The notes beneath the pieces were generated by a model. That model did no database searches. It saw nothing but the letters and a program-made list of their open reading frames with translations, and was not told the origin of the DNA. Shown here one piece after another: positions 5,463 through 38,174 of a DNA stretch of 41,294 nucleotides; the first letter of the stretch is position 1, and the number at the start of each line of letters is the position of its first letter. A program made the position numbers and the translations under genes. This DNA is from a virus (lineage: Duplodnaviria; Heunggongvirae; Uroviricota; Caudoviricetes), in the IMG/VR virus record IMGVR_UViG_3300033074_000010, positions 1-41,294 of that record; one strand, given 5' to 3'.

Positions 5463-6539
5463 ATGCTATTAACTTTAGCGCCACAGGGTTTATCTATGAG
5501 CTTACTTACATCTCTAATCAGCCACCAGATATGGCTGCAACGCACCGCATCCGGTGAAGTGAAAGGCCTCGCACCGTTCATTAAGGAGATGCGGGACGAA
5601 ATAAAACGGCAGGTTCTGTTATTCGGCGACGACGGGCGAAGCTCGCGCCGACTGAATAAATTGTTACGCGACCTTGAAGAAGCGCTAACCGGACTTACAG
5701 GCGACTGGCAAACAAAGCTGACAGAAGACCTTAAGGAACTGGCGGCGTATGAGGCGGAGTGGAACGTAAAGACGCTGACAGCTAACGTAGACGCGGAATT
5801 TGTCACGCCTACCGCGGAACAGGTGTGGGCCGCTGCCGAGTTTCAACCTCTGTCGCTAAGTGACAAGCCCGTTGACTTCACCAAGCTGATGTCAGGCTGG
5901 GGTGAAGCGGAGGTCGCGCGCCTTGTAACTGGCGTTAAGATGGGCTTTGTGCAAGGCCAAACCACACGGCAGATTGTTAAAGAAGTAGTTGGTAAAGGCG
6001 GCCTGGCTGACGTATCAGAGAAACACGCCGCTACAGTAATCCGCACCGCGCTGTCCCACGTGTCCAACGAAGCCCGTAATGAGACATACCGCCAGAACGA
6101 CGACATCATCGAGAAATACGAATGGGTGTCAACGCTGGACAGCCGCACCAGTACGATTTGCAGAGCCAGAGACGGAATGACGTGGGGAATCGGTAAAGGG
6201 CCAATGCCCCCTGCCCATCCGAACTGCCGGTCGTGCACGGCGCCCGTAATTAGCTCGGAGTTCGACTTCCTCGATAAAGGCGCAAAACGTGCGGCTAAGG
6301 GCGCGGACGGAGGTACTCAGGTAAGTGCGGACACCACCTATTACGAGTTCCTGAAACAACAACCGGCATGGTTTCAGGACCAGGCGCTCGGCCCTGTTCG
6401 CGGTAAGATTTTCCGTAACAGCGGTATATCGCCGGAAGAGTTTCGCGTAATATCTGTAGATGGTTTCGGTAATCCGCTGACGCTTAAGCAGATGGCGGAA
6501 CTCGATAAACGTGTTGCTGATTATCTGAAAGGGGATTAA
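5463..6539 (+). CDS. head morphogenesis / minor head protein (putative)
   Basis: 358-aa ORF after portal, gene-order analogy to SPP1 gp7 / Mu F-like; alternative ATG at 5496. Confidence 0.55.
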   Translation: MLLTLAPQGLSMSLLTSLISHQIWLQRTASGEVKGLAPFIKEMRDEIKRQVLLFGDDGRSSRRLNKLLRDLEEALTGLTGDWQTKLTEDLKELAAYEAEWNVKTLTANVDAEFVTPTAEQVWAAAEFQPLSLSDKPVDFTKLMSGWGEAEVARLVTGVKMGFVQGQTTRQIVKEVVGKGGLADVSEKHAATVIRTALSHVSNEARNETYRQNDDIIEKYEWVSTLDSRTSTICRARDGMTWGIGKGPMPPAHPNCRSCTAPVISSEFDFLDKGAKRAAKGADGGTQVSADTTYYEFLKQQPAWFQDQALGPVRGKIFRNSGISPEEFRVISVDGFGNPLTLKQMAELDKRVADYLKGD

Positions 6540-7000
6540 TGATGGGCTTTTTCAAAGTAACTGATGTGCCGTCGCGTCGCGTAGTCCAGTACGCTCGTGT
6601 GTCTGGCTCCGGTGAGAACGTGGTATTTATTGAAGATGAAAGTGTACTGGGTACACCAGTAGACGATATGCCGTTTGCGGACAAGACTGGTATTGCGCTG
6701 CCTGCGGCAGGTATGCTTTACGAGATTCCGTATCTGGCGGACGCTGGCGACGTGTATTTCTCTGCACAACCACAGGACGTCGAACTGGCAGACGGCAGCG
6801 CCACTATCACTGTCGAGGTTAAGGCGGGCAAAGCACCATACGCGCTGACCTGGTACAAAGACGGTAAGGAAGTGGTAAACGCCCCGGAAGAGGCTTTGTC
6901 TCTGACGGTTAATGCGGTGGGTGAATACTTCGTTAAAGTTACTGATGCCGATGGTGTAGAGGCCGTAAGCAAAGCGGCGAAGGTCACTAAGCCAGAATAA
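6539..7000 (+). CDS. hypothetical structural protein with Ig-like C-terminal region
   Basis: 153-aa ORF; C-terminal segment (ATITVEVKAGKAPYALTWYKDGKEV) resembles Ig-like domains. Confidence 0.4.
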   Translation: MMGFFKVTDVPSRRVVQYARVSGSGENVVFIEDESVLGTPVDDMPFADKTGIALPAAGMLYEIPYLADAGDVYFSAQPQDVELADGSATITVEVKAGKAPYALTWYKDGKEVVNAPEEALSLTVNAVGEYFVKVTDADGVEAVSKAAKVTKPE

Positions 7001-7025: not shown

Positions 7026-7089
7026 AGCGCCTGTGACTATTCCAGTTATTCCACCGAATTGTAAATGTTAGAATAAACTATTCGAATAG

Positions 7090-7118
7090 TTGACTTTTCA
7101 CCAAAAATGTGCTAAGCT
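7090..7118 (+). promoter_or_regulatory. sigma70-like promoter (extended -10)
   Basis: TTGACT(7090-7095), 17 nt, TGcTAAGCT(7110-7118); 16-bp perfect palindrome AACTATTCGAATAGTT (7076-7091) overlaps the -35. Confidence 0.55.
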
Positions 7119-7121
7119 CCA

Positions 7122-7230
7122 CCTGAGCTTGTGAAGTATGAACAAGCGACCGCGGCACGGCAGGTAACGGAGCCGGACGTTAAGTCCGAGTGTAGTTACG
7201 CTGACGCGTTCGGAAGGGCCATACTCTATT
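7122..7230 (+). ncRNA. candidate structured RNA / cis-regulatory leader, copy A (family unassigned)
   Basis: No ORF of 60 aa or more; 5' 34 nt identical and 3' ~31 nt near-identical to 36852-36963; conserved hairpin GCTTGT-9nt-ACAAGC. Confidence 0.4.
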
Positions 7231-7297
7231 GCTTGTGTAAAAAGTAACTGGTTTACTGAGATTACGCCGTTTCTATGTTTAAATGATAAGGACTAGC

Positions 7298-7324
7298 GCC
7301 CCGCTTTAAGGCGGGGCTTTACTT
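7298..7324 (+). terminator. terminator-like hairpin (weak U tract)
   Basis: Stem GCCCCGC(7298-7304)/GCGGGGC(7311-7317) followed by TTTACTT. Confidence 0.35.
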
Positions 7325-7341
7325 ATCGAGAAAGGGGAAAC

Positions 7342-27887: not shown

Positions 27888-28175
27888 TTAACTATAATAG
27901 TGTGCTATTAGGGTGTCAACCTGTTTAAACGAGCCAACGACAAAAACATTTGCACCACGTTTACGCATACGCTCGTGCTCTCGTAACTGGTGCGGGTCTG
28001 GCTTCGTGTTTTCGTCTTTCTTCACCTCGACAAACCAGACTATGCCGCCAGGGAGAATTACCAGCAGGTCTGGAGCGCCGGAGCGCCCCTCGTAGGAAAG
28101 TTTACGAACGAGGCCACCAATGGCCTCGAATCGCTCCTTCGTGTATTTCTGTATTTTGCCCTCAGGCGTACTCAT
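27888..28175 (-). CDS. VRR-NUC domain nuclease (putative)
   Basis: PD-(D/E)XK-like core GAPDLLVILPGGIVWFVEVKK; 95 aa. Confidence 0.65.
   Translation of the reverse strand: MSTPEGKIQKYTKERFEAIGGLVRKLSYEGRSGAPDLLVILPGGIVWFVEVKKDENTKPDPHQLREHERMRKRGANVFVVGSFKQVDTLIAHYYS
27891..27919 (-). promoter_or_regulatory. sigma70-like promoter with conserved box (site 2)
   Basis: Read on - strand: TTGACA (27914-27919), 17 nt, TATAGT (27891-27896); palindrome AATAGTGTGCTATT 27896-27909. Confidence 0.6.
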
Positions 28176-31449: not shown

Positions 31450-31478
31450 ACTATAATAGCTAACTATTCGGGTGTCAA
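31450..31478 (-). promoter_or_regulatory. sigma70-like promoter with conserved box (site 3)
   Basis: Read on - strand: TTGACA (31473-31478), 17 nt, TATAGT (31450-31455); palindrome AATAGCTAACTATT 31455-31468. Confidence 0.6.
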
Positions 31479-32724: not shown

Positions 32725-32993
32725 ACCCTGTTCTCCCACTGGTCAATTAAATGTCTGGTCTGGTGCTGGCAATGCATGGCCCATCCATACATCGACTCGA
32801 AGACATAAAAGTCAGGCTTGGCAAAAGTCGTGCGCTTAATCTGCGACACATGACGGCCTATATCTTTAGCCCGCGGTACTTTGCCTAAGTACGCCATCTC
32901 TTCCATCTGGTGCGCACCTGACGGCGCACGCAACAGCCACAACGCCTCTGTGTTATCCCGCCTGTCAACGGCGCGGTAGAGTTGGTAAATCAT
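32721..32993 (-). CDS. hypothetical protein (90 aa)
   Basis: ORF track; RBS GAGGG; translationally coupled to exonuclease. Confidence 0.5.
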   Translation of the reverse strand: MIYQLYRAVDRRDNTEALWLLRAPSGAHQMEEMAYLGKVPRAKDIGRHVSQIKRTTFAKPDFYVFESMYGWAMHCQHQTRHLIDQWENRV

Positions 32994-33036
32994 AATTACG
33001 ACCCTCAGTTAAAGCGGCCCGAAGGCCGCGAGATAA

Positions 33037-33519
33037 TTATTCTTCTTCGAAATACTTGTTCTTGATTGCTGTCAGGCGTTCCAGGTACTCGGCCAGGTCT
33101 TCGTCTTTAATCGCGGCAATCTTCATCTTCTTACCGGTGAACTCTTCCAGCAGTTCATCAGAATCGTCGCACGCGGCATCGCTCGGACCTTCGTTAATTG
33201 CATCGTCGATAGCCTGAATCTGGTCACGAAGAGACTGGTAATCGACTTCTTCTTTCTCTTCTTCCGGCTCTGGCGTTGGTTCCTCTACTTTAGCTTTACG
33301 CGGCTTACGTTTTGGCTTCTCTTCTTCTGCTGGTTTAGTGTCAACGACGTCTTCACCTTCTACCGGGATTTCTTTTGCTGTCTCGATTGTTGCGGTTTGT
33401 TCAACGACCTCTGCGACTAATGCAGTTTTTGCAACATTAACTTGTTTCGCACTATTCGCAGCAATCAGTTCATGGGCGACTACGAAACGTTCCAGTAATT
33501 TAATAAATTGTTCTAACAT
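33037..33519 (-). CDS. hypothetical acidic protein (160 aa)
   Basis: First gene after promoter site 4; RBS GAGGAGAG; Glu/Asp/Pro-rich central region. Confidence 0.6.
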   Translation of the reverse strand: MLEQFIKLLERFVVAHELIAANSAKQVNVAKTALVAEVVEQTATIETAKEIPVEGEDVVDTKPAEEEKPKRKPRKAKVEEPTPEPEEEKEEVDYQSLRDQIQAIDDAINEGPSDAACDDSDELLEEFTGKKMKIAAIKDEDLAEYLERLTAIKNKYFEEE

Positions 33520-33550
33520 TTGTTTCTCTCCTCTCGTTTGGTATGGGCTA

Positions 33551-33579
33551 ACTATAATAGTGAACTATTCACTTGTCAA
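33551..33579 (-). promoter_or_regulatory. sigma70-like promoter with conserved box (site 4)
   Basis: Read on - strand: TTGACA (33574-33579), 17 nt, TATAGT (33551-33556); palindrome AATAGTGAACTATT 33556-33569; divergent from the Cro-like gene. Confidence 0.6.
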
Positions 33580-33643
33580 TGGGCTTTTATAAAATAATTA
33601 ATATGGTACTATTCACATATCAACTGACTAAGGAGTAATTGAC

Positions 33644-33859
33644 ATGCAACCATCTGAACTAGGCATCCGTGTAGAGCAACGCCGTAAAGAACTCGGCATC
33701 TCCCAGCGCCGTCTGGCTGTCCTGACCGGCGTTTCTCAGGGCGCGATTAACCAACTGGCACTCGGCGTAACTCAGGACGTCCGCCCTGCAACGCTGTTTA
33801 AACTGGCGGAAGTGCTGGAAGTAGACGCCAAGTGGCTGGCGTTAGGTGAAGGGGCTTAA
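33644..33859 (+). CDS. HTH transcriptional regulator, XRE/Cro-like
   Basis: 71 aa; HTH ISQRRLAVLTGVSQGAINQL; strong RBS AAGGAG (33630-33635). Confidence 0.75.
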   Translation: MQPSELGIRVEQRRKELGISQRRLAVLTGVSQGAINQLALGVTQDVRPATLFKLAEVLEVDAKWLALGEGA

Positions 33860-33874
33860 AGCCCCTTTCTTTTT
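33851..33874 (+). terminator. rho-independent terminator
   Basis: Stem GGGGC/GCCCC around the stop codon followed by TTTCTTTTT. Confidence 0.55.
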
Positions 33875-33876
33875 AC

Positions 33877-36138
33877 CTACTCCAAATCCTCCTCTGTCAC
33901 CACCAGCATTTCATTTGGTTCGTATATTGTCTTCGGGATCTTGTTGTCGTTTATACCCCACGGCAACCGGTATTGCTTAGGGATAGGCCTGTTGTTGTTA
34001 TCCAGGCCTGAGACGATAACCCCAGCCTCGTGCATCTCTTCCAGTTTCTTTCGAAGGTCGTTATTAGCGTTAATCGGTACGCCGTAACTATCTTCTTTAG
34101 CGGCTTTGACGATAGCTGACATGGAAAACCCCCGCTTGTCGTCGCCCTGCTCCTGCAATTTACCCAATGCGTAAATAACCGTAGCTTCTTTGGTGTCCAG
34201 TTTCTCGAACTGGCCTACCTTTTCTTTAACGGCTTCCTTCTGTTCGTCGGTCATACCTTCTACTTTCTTCACGAAGACAGAGAAGGAGTTAAAGTTAACA
34301 AAGACATCGATGTGCGGATTTCCTGCGTCAAAATCTCGTACATCGTCACTACTGTACCCTTCCGGGAGTCCCATGAAGTTGTGAGTTGGTTCTTTCTTTT
34401 CTGGGGGCTCCGCTATCTGAATCTTCTGTATTACGAACCCTCTGGCTTTCTGCCGTTCTCCGTTTCGGTTCTTTATGTGATACAGATTTATCTCTAAGTT
34501 ATTGTCGTTGTCTGGTTTATGCAGGAACATCCCGTTATCGATGGAGTTGTGAAAGTCGCTCCCACCCTTCGGCATCATGCCGTTTTCGGACGGTACTGTT
34601 TCGTCGATGTTTTTAGTCGGGTGCACCATAGCGCCGACCGCAGCGTTAAGCGTTGCCGCTATTTCGTTAAGCGCCTGCGCCGCTTCTTTCATCGACCTGT
34701 TATCGTTTTCGTCGAAGCCCGGTATGCAAGTTTGTAGGGTATCAAACGTAACCTTTACAATTTTCTCTTCACCGGCAACACGGCGCATCATTCTCACCGC
34801 CTGGCGGCGCCACGCCTCATCAAGTAAATTACACCCATCGGCGACACAATCGATAATGTGCAAGCGGTCCAGGCTATCCCCGAGGGCAATCTGCAAAGAC
34901 TTTTTATGTCGCTCGAACGACTGCGCACCTTCACCCGCAAAAATGAACGCATGTCCTTCTGCGACCTCAGCCCCGCCGAACGCATATCTTTTTTCAGCGG
35001 CAATAGCGGCGTCAATCGCCATACTAAATGTTGACTTACCAGTGTGGGACTTTGCGCAAATGTAGAAGGATTCATTAGTCTGCATAAGGCCGTCTACGAC
35101 GGAGTAAGCAGGTTCTTTTTCTACTTCCGGCTCGTCTTCAAGGTCTTCCAGCGTGCAAGTTACAGGCTCTTCGTTCTCTGTGCGGTGCAATTCCTCAATC
35201 TCTTCGTCCGGTAAATCCGGCAAAGCCGCACGAATGCTGTTAATACTGATAGGTTGCTTGTCTACGTTAAGCTCGTCTGGCAGTCCGCACATACGCAAGG
35301 CCAAATGTTGTCGACGGTTAAGTTCAGTGCAAGCGCCGTTGTTTGTGTGCTGGCACACGAAGCGCACTTCTTTACCGTCAAGCATAATGCTGGTGGAACC
35401 TTTTCCGGTGTGCAGGTGTTCGTTAGGGCAAGGCACTTCGTACCCGCGGCCGGAAGATAGAGCGTCAAGACCTAACTCAGCTTCGCAGAAATGGGCTATA
35501 TCTGCGTTAAGCCCGTGCTCATCGGCAGCAAGCGTCTTAGCTTCACGCTTACGCAATCCCATCTCTTCGGCTTTCTTGATGTACCGCTCAGCACGGATAA
35601 CCCGCCCTTCTGTAACCGTTATCTTTGACTCTTTATGCGGCAGGTAGATAAGGCGATTGCCGTCTTCCGTGCAGTGGTCGCGCAATGCTTCGTCTATTTC
35701 TAACTCGGCACAAATAGCACGTTGCACCATCCACGCATCGTTAGAGTTAAACGGCGTGCGAGCCGGAACCAGAACGCGGAAGGCGTAATCCCCGTTTTTG
35801 CACGCGTGCCGGTGTGACGCCGTTGTATGCAGAATGTTGAAGAACGGCGCATTCTTAAATTTGCGTGTCAGGTTGCGGTACTGAGTACGGTTGAGATGGT
35901 CAAAGTCGAACTTAACCACACTGTCTTCCAGAATCGCGTTCTTACGGCGACCACCAACAGGTGCGATAGCTTTCTGTTTAATCTTGGCGGCGTCGTACTC
36001 TTCCTTAGTCCACGACGGGTCCACGGATAAACGCTTCGATGTATCACAGACATACTCTACGAACTGCTCCAGCGGCATTTCACGCGCTACAGGGTTTTTA
36101 TCGAATGTGTTACGCAGCGTTGCAAAAACAATATTCAT
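33877..36138 (-). CDS. DNA primase (AEP/PrimPol-like) with C-terminal P-loop NTPase domain
   Basis: DxD motif VVKFDFDHL; Cys/His zinc-binding cluster CPNEHLH...CQHTNNGAC; Walker A AKSHTGKST. Confidence 0.75.
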   Translation of the reverse strand: MNIVFATLRNTFDKNPVAREMPLEQFVEYVCDTSKRLSVDPSWTKEEYDAAKIKQKAIAPVGGRRKNAILEDSVVKFDFDHLNRTQYRNLTRKFKNAPFFNILHTTASHRHACKNGDYAFRVLVPARTPFNSNDAWMVQRAICAELEIDEALRDHCTEDGNRLIYLPHKESKITVTEGRVIRAERYIKKAEEMGLRKREAKTLAADEHGLNADIAHFCEAELGLDALSSGRGYEVPCPNEHLHTGKGSTSIMLDGKEVRFVCQHTNNGACTELNRRQHLALRMCGLPDELNVDKQPISINSIRAALPDLPDEEIEELHRTENEEPVTCTLEDLEDEPEVEKEPAYSVVDGLMQTNESFYICAKSHTGKSTFSMAIDAAIAAEKRYAFGGAEVAEGHAFIFAGEGAQSFERHKKSLQIALGDSLDRLHIIDCVADGCNLLDEAWRRQAVRMMRRVAGEEKIVKVTFDTLQTCIPGFDENDNRSMKEAAQALNEIAATLNAAVGAMVHPTKNIDETVPSENGMMPKGGSDFHNSIDNGMFLHKPDNDNNLEINLYHIKNRNGERQKARGFVIQKIQIAEPPEKKEPTHNFMGLPEGYSSDDVRDFDAGNPHIDVFVNFNSFSVFVKKVEGMTDEQKEAVKEKVGQFEKLDTKEATVIYALGKLQEQGDDKRGFSMSAIVKAAKEDSYGVPINANNDLRKKLEEMHEAGVIVSGLDNNNRPIPKQYRLPWGINDNKIPKTIYEPNEMLVVTEEDLE

Positions 36139-36263: not shown

Positions 36264-36313
36264 TGTATAATCCTTGTGCTTACTTTGATGATTTATGCTT
36301 CGGCCCCGACGTT

Positions 36314-36547
36314 CTAGCGTTGGGGTTTCTTTTGTCTACGCACCGCATTAACCCACTCCCCTTCGCTACGGTAAAAACTGCAATCAAGGATATCCTCTAT
36401 AGAAAATTTAACTATTTTAGTGGGTCCACAAAAGTTATAAGGGAAAAGTTCTACATAACACCCATCGTCGGTTATATTTGACGCAATCTTGAAATAATAT
36501 TTAATGCTGCCGTCTTCGCGGAAGCTACAACCCATACGCCCAATCAT
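36314..36547 (-). CDS. hypothetical protein (77 aa), AT-rich
   Basis: ORF track; start overlaps stop of AlpA-like gene. Confidence 0.45.
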   Translation of the reverse strand: MIGRMGCSFREDGSIKYYFKIASNITDDGCYVELFPYNFCGPTKIVKFSIEDILDCSFYRSEGEWVNAVRRQKKPQR

Positions 36548-36714
36548 TTCACGTTCTCCTTAATCCACGCTTCAACTTTATTACGGTCGAATGTTCCCGG
36601 CATCCGGCGACCCATTACTTTAACGCCGCAATCTGGAAACTTTCCACTCTTAATCCAGTTATTAATTGTCTGGCGGGTGACACCGATTAATTCTGCAACT
36701 TCATTGATAGTCAT
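36544..36714 (-). CDS. AlpA-like HTH DNA-binding protein
   Basis: MTINEVAELIGVTRQTINNWIKSGKFP matches AlpA/MerR-like phage regulator pattern; ATG 36714 after AGGAGA (track ORF extends to 36804). Confidence 0.65.
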   Translation of the reverse strand: MTINEVAELIGVTRQTINNWIKSGKFPDCGVKVMGRRMPGTFDRNKVEAWIKENVK

Positions 36715-36743
36715 TTCACGTTCTCCTATGTAAGATATACCGA

Positions 36744-36794: not shown

Positions 36795-36819
36795 TAAAAT
36801 ACAAAAGATGCTACTAGTA

Positions 36820-36848
36820 TTGACTTTTACTGAGAAATATGGTAAGCT
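36820..36848 (+). promoter_or_regulatory. sigma70-like promoter (extended -10)
   Basis: TTGACT (36820-36825), 17 nt, TGgTAAGCT (36840-36848); same hexamers as promoter at 7090-7118. Confidence 0.55.
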
Positions 36849-36851
36849 CGT

Positions 36852-36963
36852 CCTGAGCTTGTGAAGTATGAACAAGCGACCGCGGTGCGCGGCAGGCGAA
36901 ACGAGCACGTCTCGACGTGTGGAGTGAGCCTCGCTGACGCATTCGGAAGGGCCATAGTCTATT
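36852..36963 (+). ncRNA. candidate structured RNA / cis-regulatory leader, copy B (family unassigned)
   Basis: Paralogue of 7122-7230; no ORF of 60 aa or more on + strand; identical 5' 34 nt and near-identical 3' block. Confidence 0.4.
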
Positions 36964-37118
36964 ATAATTCCCCGCCTAAATATCTAAGTTATTGATTTGC
37001 CGTAGGTCAGAACCGCAAGCTCACTCACTCACTCTTGGTGCCTTCGGCACCACGTTCGTTTCGTTTCGCTCGCTACCCCATTAAACAAAAGAATCACAAC
37101 GGCAACGTAACTAATCTC

Positions 37119-37147
37119 TTGCACACCCCAATATAATAGGGTACTAT
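37119..37147 (+). promoter_or_regulatory. promoter with conserved box (site 6)
   Basis: TTGCAC (37119-37124), 17 nt, TACTAT (37142-37147); box ATATAATAGGGTACTATTCAC; leader AAACGAGACAGAGGAG precedes ATG. Confidence 0.5.
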
Positions 37148-37181
37148 TCACTTATCGAAACGAGACAGAGGAGTGAGGGTT

Positions 37182-38114: not shown

Positions 38115-38143
38115 TTGCACACTAAGATAGAATAGGCTACTAT
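38115..38143 (+). promoter_or_regulatory. promoter with conserved box (site 7)
   Basis: TTGCAC (38115-38120), 17 nt, TACTAT (38138-38143); box AGAATAGGCTACTATTCAT; leader AAACGAGAGGAGAGA precedes ATG. Confidence 0.5.
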
Positions 38144-38174
38144 TCATTTACACAAACGAGAGGAGAGACAGAAG

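Follow-up and report, generated by a model that had tools for sequence, protein, structure and literature searches.

What is a Cro-like gene doing in a phage of a lytic subfamily? The question is raised by positions 33520 to 33876 of the virus record IMGVR_UViG_3300033074_000010, whose 41,294 nucleotides were analysed in full and are referred to here as the window. The window is a Kagunavirus-like siphophage (Guernseyvirinae) of the lytic type, and in this region a small gene for a protein of the Cro class, hereafter cro, lies on the + strand inside a leftward early module. An earlier note, made from the sequence alone, had described the region as a minimal immunity or early-switch region with back-to-back, overlapping promoters. 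Our analysis confirms this description in part: the gene, its terminator, the leftward promoter and the repeated boxes hold, whereas the proposed rightward -35 hexamer and the promoter overlap do not. We propose, with a probability of roughly 0.5, that the gene encodes an orphan Cro-type repressor which, without a CI partner and in a strictly lytic phage, would repress the early promoters that carry a 14-bp palindromic box and would regulate its own expression.

A comparison of positions 32900-34400 with phage records yielded 438 matches of approximately 90-95% identity, nearly all of them in Kagunavirus of Escherichia or Jerseyvirus of Salmonella; for the right part of the window (16 kb), the pattern of matches was the same. 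The Guernseyvirinae are small siphophages that are lytic according to the literature, and lysogeny genes have not been reported in them. In the records of these relatives, the cro gene is named 'transcriptional regulator Cro', 'transcriptional repressor DicA', 'repressor', or 'hypothetical protein'. The box and the locus were compared in 33 Kagunavirus and 11 Jerseyvirus contigs, Jerseyvirus phage AG11 was also analysed, and the genus Cornellvirus was represented by phages Shemara and VSiP.

The cro gene and its promoter region

33644..33859, + strand: cro-like gene encoding a 71-amino-acid (aa) single-domain HTH_3 protein (open reading frame, Pfam, PDB phmmer, AlphaFold2 (AF2), Foldseek)
33630..33635, + strand: ribosome-binding site AAGGAG, 8 nt 5' of the ATG (sequence; invariant across relatives of all three genera)
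33848..33875, + strand only: intrinsic terminator of cro with the stop codon in its loop (hairpin 33848-33868 plus T-run)
33551..33579, - strand: leftward sigma-70 promoter (class A), TTGACA (33579-33574), 17 nt, TATAGT (33556-33551), 11/12 match
33556..33569, unstranded: box 4, AATAGTGAACTATT, a perfect palindrome filling 13 of the 17 spacer positions and the first -10 base of the leftward promoter
33600..33613, unstranded: box 5, AATATGGTACTATT, a one-mismatch palindrome holding the proposed cro -10
33583..33603, unstranded: A/T-rich block between both promoters, nearly invariant in 33 loci

The XRE/Cro-like gene that had been predicted at this position was borne out as a 71-aa open reading frame with a ribosome-binding site and an HTH_3 domain. 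Because the nucleotide differences cluster at third codon positions (391 of 443, in 31 distinct alleles from the 33 Kagunavirus contigs), cro is, judged by this pattern, a genuine gene under purifying selection. Pfam HTH_3 (PF01381) covers residues 11-65 at 47.2 bits, with a gathering cut-off of 23 and E = 2.3e-12, and the PHROG families of the protein are those of a 'transcriptional repressor/regulator'. In a phmmer search of the PDB, the top matches were 434 Cro (71 aa) and the 434 repressor's N-terminal DNA-binding domain (E ~1e-5, residues 6-68).

The AF2 model was built on a shallow alignment of 9 sequences, since the homologue search gave only 20 close clusters, and contains five helices (5-17, 21-28, 32-39, 48-57, 62-66) at a pLDDT of 76.8. 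Its best Foldseek matches were 1pra, 2cro, and 3cro at TM 0.73-0.80, followed by restriction-modification (R-M) controller proteins, SinR, HipB, CapH, and P22 c2. Model and matches agree on a five-helix HTH_3 fold in which helices 2-3 form the helix-turn-helix (HTH). These two helices (LSQRRLA..GVSQGAINQLALGVTQDVR) are identical even in variants with just 77-80% overall identity, and in all three genera the recognition helix begins with the same Gln. Overall, Cro is 49% identical between Kagunavirus and Jerseyvirus and 41-49% identical among the three genera; beyond the subfamily, its closest homologues are temperate-phage CI/Cro proteins (about 35-45% identity).

The loop of the terminator hairpin (-17.6 kcal/mol, z = -3.4) includes TAA, the stop codon of cro, and two bases past the terminator end comes the primase stop, TAG (33879-33877), as expected from the earlier description of a terminator overlapping the one stop and abutting the other. 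Hairpin and T-run are kept in the 33 relatives, with a variable loop and regardless of the downstream gene, and the terminator works one way because its - strand version has no T-run. Between the primase gene and cro there is no leftward terminator, and read-through from the primase operon would therefore be antisense to cro. The annotations of the relatives agree that cro is the sole + strand protein gene of the leftward module, which extends from the tailspike to the divergent early region, with the caveat that just past the 36.7-kb limit there is a conserved non-coding element on the + strand (36822-37060) that has a promoter and a terminator of its own. A 35-nt stretch of cro (33807-33841) is an exact match to a spacer in the iap-linked CRISPR array of E. 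coli 2017.09.02CC.

The leftward promoter with its -35 at 33574-33579 was recovered at 11 of 12 consensus positions, its TGTCAA (+ strand) is invariant in relatives, and it is placed to drive the genes of the 160-aa protein, a 90-aa protein, and the exonuclease. The rightward -35 that had been assigned to TTGTCA (33573-33578) did not withstand comparison. Most Kagunavirus relatives have A or G in place of its first T, an acceptable -10 is missing at 16-18 nt downstream, and the hexamer is no more than the invariant leftward TTGACA, a near-palindrome, read in reverse. The cro -10 is more likely TACTAT at 33607-33612, inside box 5, with a TG at 33604-33605, one base upstream, as in extended -10 elements. 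Box 5 matches the class B promoters described below base for base (...GG TACTAT TCAC..., compared with TTGCAC-17-TACTAT-TCAC), and the start codon lies 31 nt past this -10, the corresponding distances at the other two rightward class B promoters being 34 and 31 nt.

Jerseyvirus has a genuine class B -35 (TTGCGT or TTGCAC), spaced at 17 nt, in its cro-proximal element. Kagunavirus has the invariant A/T-rich block in place of this -35, and Cornellvirus has a TTGTNN-18-TATA(C/T)T promoter at the same place. From its position and composition, the block at 33583-33603 may serve both as the UP element of the leftward promoter and as the -35/spacer region of the cro promoter, in which case the two promoters may compete. 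With the cro -10 in box 5 and TTGTCA not conserved, the favoured assignment makes the promoters back-to-back rather than overlapping, with probable starts near 33544 (leftward) and 33619 (rightward), approximately 75 bp apart. Box 5 was also considered as a second leftward promoter (TTGATA-18-AATTAT), which was dropped since its -35 is not kept in Jerseyvirus.

A 14-bp palindrome at early promoters

The conserved box is the 14-bp palindrome AATAG-N4-CTATT. In an unbiased scan of all 5-N(0-8)-5 palindromes of the window it ranked first, with 6 perfect copies against 0.036 expected (starting at 15450, 27896, 31455, 33556, 37135, and 38131), and the same scan of Jerseyvirus AG11 gave 5 copies against 0.04 expected. 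When one mismatch was allowed, 11 sites were found in the window, compared with 0.98 in shuffles. The two copies that had been noticed 5' of cro are among them, one perfect (33556-33569) and one with a single mismatch (33600-33613). The remaining perfect copies lie as follows:

31455..31468, unstranded: box in the spacer of a class A promoter (31478-31450, - strand), 5' of the DUF2815 and DNA polymerase genes; kept in Kagunavirus and Jerseyvirus
27896..27909, unstranded: box in the spacer of a class A promoter (27919-27891, - strand); promoter and palindrome scans
37135..37148, unstranded: box over the -10 of a class B rightward promoter, TTGCAC (37119-37124), 17 nt, TACTAT (37142-37147); conserved in relatives
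38131..38144, unstranded: box over the -10 of a second class B rightward promoter; palindrome scan and alignment
15450..15463, unstranded: box over the -10 of a class B leftward promoter in the structural region, 5' of the metallophosphatase cluster

Every box overlaps a promoter-like site, and two classes of such sites can be told apart. In class A (33579, 31478, and 27919, all leftward), the order is TTGACA, 3-4 nt, palindrome, TATAGT, the box filling the spacer and touching the first -10 base; elsewhere in the region, promoter-like matches are at chance level. Class B promoters (TTGCAC or TTGCGC-17-TACTAT) occur at 37119-37147 and 38138, both rightward, and at 15456, leftward; here the -10 is formed by the right half-site, and the left half-site falls within the spacer. 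The two classes differ by six bases in box register with respect to the -35 and -10. The box at 37135-37148 also falls in the spacer of a candidate leftward promoter (TCGATA-17-TATATT), and the site at 15450 has an orthologue at position 6873 of Shemara.

The half-sites show essentially no variation at orthologous promoters of the 33 Kagunavirus and 11 Jerseyvirus contigs. Those of box 4 are invariant in 33 relatives; its central 4 nt vary (CGAA, TGAA, CTAA, CAAA, CTAG, CGAG), and the 3-5 nt between the box and the -35 are variable, with indels. Box 5 is nearly invariant in the 33 Kagunavirus loci. The box centre is free, with 18 tetranucleotides among 98 perfect Kagunavirus boxes, and the base next to the right half-site differs between the genera: T..C in 95 of the 98 Kagunavirus boxes and T..A in all 24 Jerseyvirus boxes. 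An outer palindrome around box 4, GTGAA-N3-TTCAC, was dropped as window-specific and not conserved.

Taken together, the dyad, the variable centre, the two registers, and the concerted flank point to a protein-binding site. It might be argued that the box is instead an intrinsic feature of sigma-70 promoters, acting through polymerase binding or DNA shape with no repressor involved, and that cro is a vestige of a temperate ancestor with little or no regulatory role. All boxes do overlap promoter-like sites, the right half-site of class B is the -10 itself, and in phage Golestan the program PHIRE reported these elements as 'conserved promoter sequences' (PMC7203180). Dyad symmetry, however, is not a trait of polymerase recognition, and the left half-site is invariant although it lies in a spacer unread by sigma-70 and next to a variable centre. 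The two registers argue against polymerase contacts, which would not need them, and between genera the flank shifted at every site together, a pattern not expected of independent promoter drift. The strong purifying selection on cro and its invariant HTH also fit poorly with a vestige, and we regard this explanation as rather improbable.

If Cro reads the box, infection might unfold as follows. Host sigma-70 RNA polymerase would fire the strong box-bearing promoters together with the weaker cro promoter. The cro gene, with its -10 in box 5, would be made as a short monocistronic mRNA that stops at its own terminator, which would also shield the convergent primase gene from antisense transcription. 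Accumulating Cro dimers would occupy the perfect boxes first, blocking the spacer in class A and the -10 in class B promoters, and these promoters serve the exonuclease, DUF2815, polymerase, and helicase genes, the small rightward early genes, and the metallophosphatase cluster. Early transcription would in this way be turned down at boxes built into nearly all early and replication promoters. At a higher level, Cro would fill the imperfect box 5, giving a weaker negative autoregulation, in the order of lambda and 434 Cro, in which the divergent promoter is repressed first and the regulator's own promoter next. In this scheme, we infer that it is Cro rather than another protein that binds the box, that binding represses, and when it does so. 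A bolder version, in which an orphan Cro is the master timer of the whole lytic subfamily through one 14-bp operator present in every early sigma-70 promoter, and convergent transcription plus repression make a CI-less switch, appears unlikely to us. In that version, primase-operon read-through would collide with the transcription of cro, which lies antisense between two leftward units, and Cro would silence the leftward promoters in return; if it were true, Cro supplied in trans should make cells 'immune' to a strictly lytic family.

Two further observations concern the arrangement of the boxes. Counted by hand, the starts of boxes 4 and 5 lie 44-45 bp apart in Kagunavirus (about 4.2 helical turns), 55 bp apart in Jerseyvirus (about 5.2), and about 64 bp apart in Cornellvirus (about 6.1), a spacing that may reflect helical phasing or chance. 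Rearranged half-sites also occur at non-early promoters (7075-7090, 192-205, 7085-7098, 36815-36827): positions 7075-7090 hold an everted perfect palindrome made of AACTATTC and GAATAGTT, and at three TTGACT promoters (197, 7091, 36822) a half-site adjoins the -35 (A[A/C]TAG(TA)TTGACT). These may represent another mode of action of the same factor, or chance.

Cro and HTH_17 as candidate box-binding proteins

The genes around cro include one rival candidate:

33037..33519, - strand: gene divergent from cro, encoding an acidic 160-aa protein (phrog_3127; annotation and family match)
33877..36138, - strand: convergent primase/helicase gene (AAA_25, phrog_3228; Pfam and PHROG)
36544..36717, - strand: gene for a 57-aa HTH_17 (excisionase/MerR-like) protein at the head of the primase operon, the rival box binder

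The HTH_17 protein is the sole other recognisable DNA-binding protein near cro. The 160-aa protein has neither a Pfam domain nor an HTH and is rich in Lys, Glu, and Pro at its centre. In some records it is labelled '13.88 kDa late protein', a legacy label from Salmonella phage MB78; if it were truly late, the class A promoter before its gene would not be simply early. For MB78, a promoter with which a phage factor interacts has also been reported.

Several features favour Cro. The dyad of the box has the 5-4-5 geometry and the 14-bp length of 434-type operators, and 434-type HTH_3 dimers bind 14-bp palindromes. The two boxes flank the regulator's own promoter, the usual layout for autoregulated repressors. 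The flank type, moreover, follows the type of the Cro recognition helix (SQGAINQL versus SQSLITHL) without exception. A co-variation of the core half-site with the Cro helix over the three genera was also considered and was not clean: AATAG is common to Kagunavirus and Jerseyvirus although their helices differ, and the flank alone co-varies.

Alternatively, the box could be the operator of another phage protein, most plausibly HTH_17, the target of Cro being local or unrelated. Kagunavirus and Jerseyvirus have the AATAG core in common, and between them HTH_17 keeps 80% identity, as compared with 49% for Cro; HTH_17 is confined to these two genera (443 records), and Cornellvirus has neither HTH_17 nor AATAG-N4-CTATT. 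Small MerR/Xis-like proteins can also repress genes of lytic phages, for example D29 Gp36 (PMC12266134). Those that have no dimerisation domain, however, usually bind head-to-tail direct repeats, as do BldC, Xis, and D29 Gp36 (PMC12266134). Within Kagunavirus, the HTH_17 recognition helix occurs in four variants (TRQTINNWIKSG, TRQTINNWLRSG, TRRTLNNWLKSG, and S[TP]MTLNRWLRSG; short forms TRQTINNW, TRRTLNNW, and STMTLNRW), while the box and its flank stay unchanged, and the variant TRRTLNNWLKSG is almost the Jerseyvirus helix, yet the box flanks of the two genera differ. A similarity of HTH_17 to the Pseudomonas antiterminator AlpA, which binds between -35 and -10, was dropped because AlpA is a larger, Q-like monomer with a 6-bp asymmetric site.

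Cornellvirus provides a further comparison. In Shemara, HTH_17 is absent and AATAG-N4-CTATT has no match, and ten early proteins tested showed no other recognisable HTH. An all-against-all 18-mer search of this genome, similar to PHIRE, gave only GC-rich coding noise, after which the intergenic regions were read directly. A related palindrome, AWTAS-N4-STAWT, which the six boxes of the window also fit, occurs there in 5 copies against 0.60 expected, all five at orthologous promoters and one of them at the promoter divergent from cro. Since Shemara has related palindromes and cro without HTH_17, the box system appears to predate HTH_17. Absent from Cornellvirus and varying in its helix independently of the box, HTH_17 does not accompany the palindromes throughout and does not co-vary with them, and we consider it an unlikely reader of the box. 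Sites for the host factors ArgR, LexA, and IHF were compared with the box by eye only, and none fits.

A number of points nevertheless weigh against repression by Cro through the box. The Cro proteins of Kagunavirus and Jerseyvirus differ at three of the four presumed base-reading positions and yet share the AATAG core, and the AATAG form of the box is limited to exactly the clade that bears HTH_17. The co-variation of the flank amounts to essentially one evolutionary split. The Shemara pattern was chosen after its sites had been inspected, which weakens that statistic, and the conservation of box 5 may be due merely to the -10 it contains. Kagunavirus has an alternative candidate promoter for cro, TTCACT-16-TAAAAT (33568-33595), for which Jerseyvirus has no counterpart. 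Searches of the available literature, finally, found no experimental study of the cro gene. Because of the single split and the differing reading positions, we put Cro as the binder of the box at about one half, and no higher.

Cro might also be aimed away from the phage genome, at the host, at resident prophages, or at defence systems, as a mimic of DicA, CI, CapH, or HipB-type repressors. This idea draws on the 'DicA' annotation in relatives, on Foldseek matches that include CapH, HipB, SinR, and C-proteins, and on the nearest homologues beyond the subfamily being temperate-phage CI/Cro proteins at about 35-45% identity. These resemblances are nonetheless a generic HTH_3 likeness, no toxin, restriction-modification, or defence gene lies beside cro, no host target was identified, and two operator-like boxes occupy cro's own promoter region. 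We judge an outward target decidedly improbable.

Origin of the gene order and comparison with known systems

The characterization of the locus as a minimal immunity or early-switch region can be divided. Its early-switch part agrees with a 434-Cro-like protein and operator-like boxes over two promoter cores. Back-to-back promoters, operator-like sites, and a Cro-like gene would likewise be expected of a functional immunity or lysogeny switch, but such a switch is contradicted by the data and is very improbable. The window and its fully annotated relatives contain no CI, no integrase, and no excisionase-integrase pair or excision module, which agrees with the absence of integrase and CI-like repressor already recorded for the window. 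A search of 33037-36138 in 5,426 complete E. coli genomes found no integrated prophage copy, the only match being the CRISPR spacer. In a lambdoid Cro/CI switch, a CI-type gene diverges from cro, the operator is tripartite, and integration and excision serve a temperate lifestyle; here, the divergent gene encodes the acidic 160-aa protein without an HTH, the two sites lie with their centres 44 bp apart and no third box between them, and integration, excision, and a temperate lifestyle are lacking.

The antisense position of cro can be explained by the history of the region. In Cornellvirus (Shemara, VSiP), the primase/helicase gene lies on the + strand directly 3' of cro, and cro heads a long rightward unit facing away from the replication genes, which run leftward; the arrangement is that of any normal divergent early region. 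The block of HTH_17, small genes, and primase has the opposite orientation in Kagunavirus and Jerseyvirus. Since the Cornellvirus primase follows cro on the same strand, we take the antisense layout to be derived. The primase/helicase is 29-31% identical among the three genera, compared with 56-91% for neighbouring replication genes and 70-91% for flanking genes, and appears as a mosaic hot spot that is reversed in Cornellvirus. Because primase and Cro identities are low and those of flanking genes high, a module replacement or inversion of the primase block has probably stranded cro. Gene order thus points to antisense embedding as a by-product of mosaic evolution and not as a special overlapping design.

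Outside the cro locus, two paralogous non-coding elements (7091-7325 and 36822-37060, + strand) each stand at the head of a long unit transcribed rightward. Both carry a sigma-70-like promoter (TTGACT-17-TAAGCT, with TG upstream), a conserved and structured core that spans about 115-130 nt, and an intrinsic terminator (7298-7317 and 37036-37052). RNAalifold folded 10 sequences of the element into 33 pairs, 8 of them with compensatory changes, and Rfam has no family for it. The element could be a cis-acting leader, an antiterminator RNA like HK022 put, or a small RNA. A covariance model matched AG11 at 5800-5912 (E = 9.5e-5), orthologous in position to the 7-kb copy and within the 'hypothetical protein' AG11_07 (5764-5955), a coding sequence that may be a mis-called RNA element; with default filters, the model found no match in Cornellvirus Shemara. 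Between RNA core and terminator, a (CTCA)n-like repeat (37016-37035, CTCACTCACTCACTC) differs in copy number among relatives. A strong terminator-like hairpin with a T-run (36302-36327, + strand) occurs where a 77-aa gene of the leftward primase operon has its 3' end; it is T12 in the Golestan list, and no + strand gene ends there.

Both the cro gene and the repeated elements are already in public annotation. The 'conserved promoter sequences' that PHIRE found in phage VB_EcoS-Golestan (PMC7203180, Supplementary Table S4) are the same elements given as 20-mers, with two copies 'Before ORF48', its DicA-like gene (TAATAGCGAACTATTCACAT and TAATATGGTACTATTCACAT), and since this listing exists, the box observation is real but not new. 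That list treats the elements as promoters only and does not mention the dyad, the registers, the link to an HTH gene, or the concerted change between genera (PMC7203180). New here are the dyad reading with its two registers, the moved cro promoter, the flank change that tracks Cro, and the derived gene order.

Phages of Kagunavirus and Jerseyvirus have widely been put forward for therapy and biocontrol, they serve as synthetic-biology chassis, and their records conflict, some papers stating that no repressor is present and GenBank entries using Cro, DicA, or repressor. If the protein were shown to be an early shut-off regulator and not a lysogeny function, this recurring safety-annotation question would be settled, and one protein with one 14-bp site would be a simple handle to control or contain these phages. 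It would be one more Cro-type regulator retained after the loss of lysogeny, which would not be surprising.

Among known systems, D29 Gp36 is a small repressor of a lytic mycobacteriophage that lowers the expression of phage genes early in infection (PMC12266134). A winged-helix protein of the MerR/Xis-like kind, it recognises GC-rich direct repeats at two loci (PMC12266134), in contrast to the HTH_3 domain and the AT-rich palindromes at most early promoters found here. The E. coli protein DicA (Qin prophage) belongs to the same HTH_3 repressor class and is longer, with a divergent dicC/dicB partner locus; the name DicA in relatives is a database similarity match and not orthology. C proteins (C.AhdI, C.BclI), structural neighbours of Cro, are likewise small HTH_3 dimers that set timing through operators at their own promoter, but their C-boxes differ in sequence and arrangement, and the neighbours of cro are primase and the 160-aa gene rather than an R-M operon; the cytosine methyltransferase of relatives is located elsewhere, and no endonuclease partner lies beside cro. 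Type II antitoxins of the HigA/HipB kind are co-transcribed with a toxin, whereas cro is monocistronic, with its own promoter and terminator.

In working principle, the closest system is the 434 or lambda Cro-operator arrangement. As in lambda, the promoters are divergent, with the better operator on the divergent promoter and the weaker one on the regulator's own, and the lambda PR and PRM starts are about 82 bp apart, compared with the approximately 75 bp proposed here. Lambda Cro has a different fold, and the divergent promoter in the window serves replication and recombination genes and not a repressor gene. 434 Cro has the same length (71 aa) and the same five-helix HTH_3 fold, with 36-39% identity in structural alignment (2cro, 3cro, 1pra, 2or1), and shares the opening Gln of the recognition helix. 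Its operator, ACAA-N6-TTGT, whose contacts are established structural knowledge, has the same 14-bp dyad geometry as AATAG-N4-CTATT, with A at half-site positions 1 and 4 in both. Unlike 434, the window has no CI partner and two rather than three sites between the promoters, 44 bp apart, and the same operator recurs at at least six further promoters across the genome of a lytic phage.

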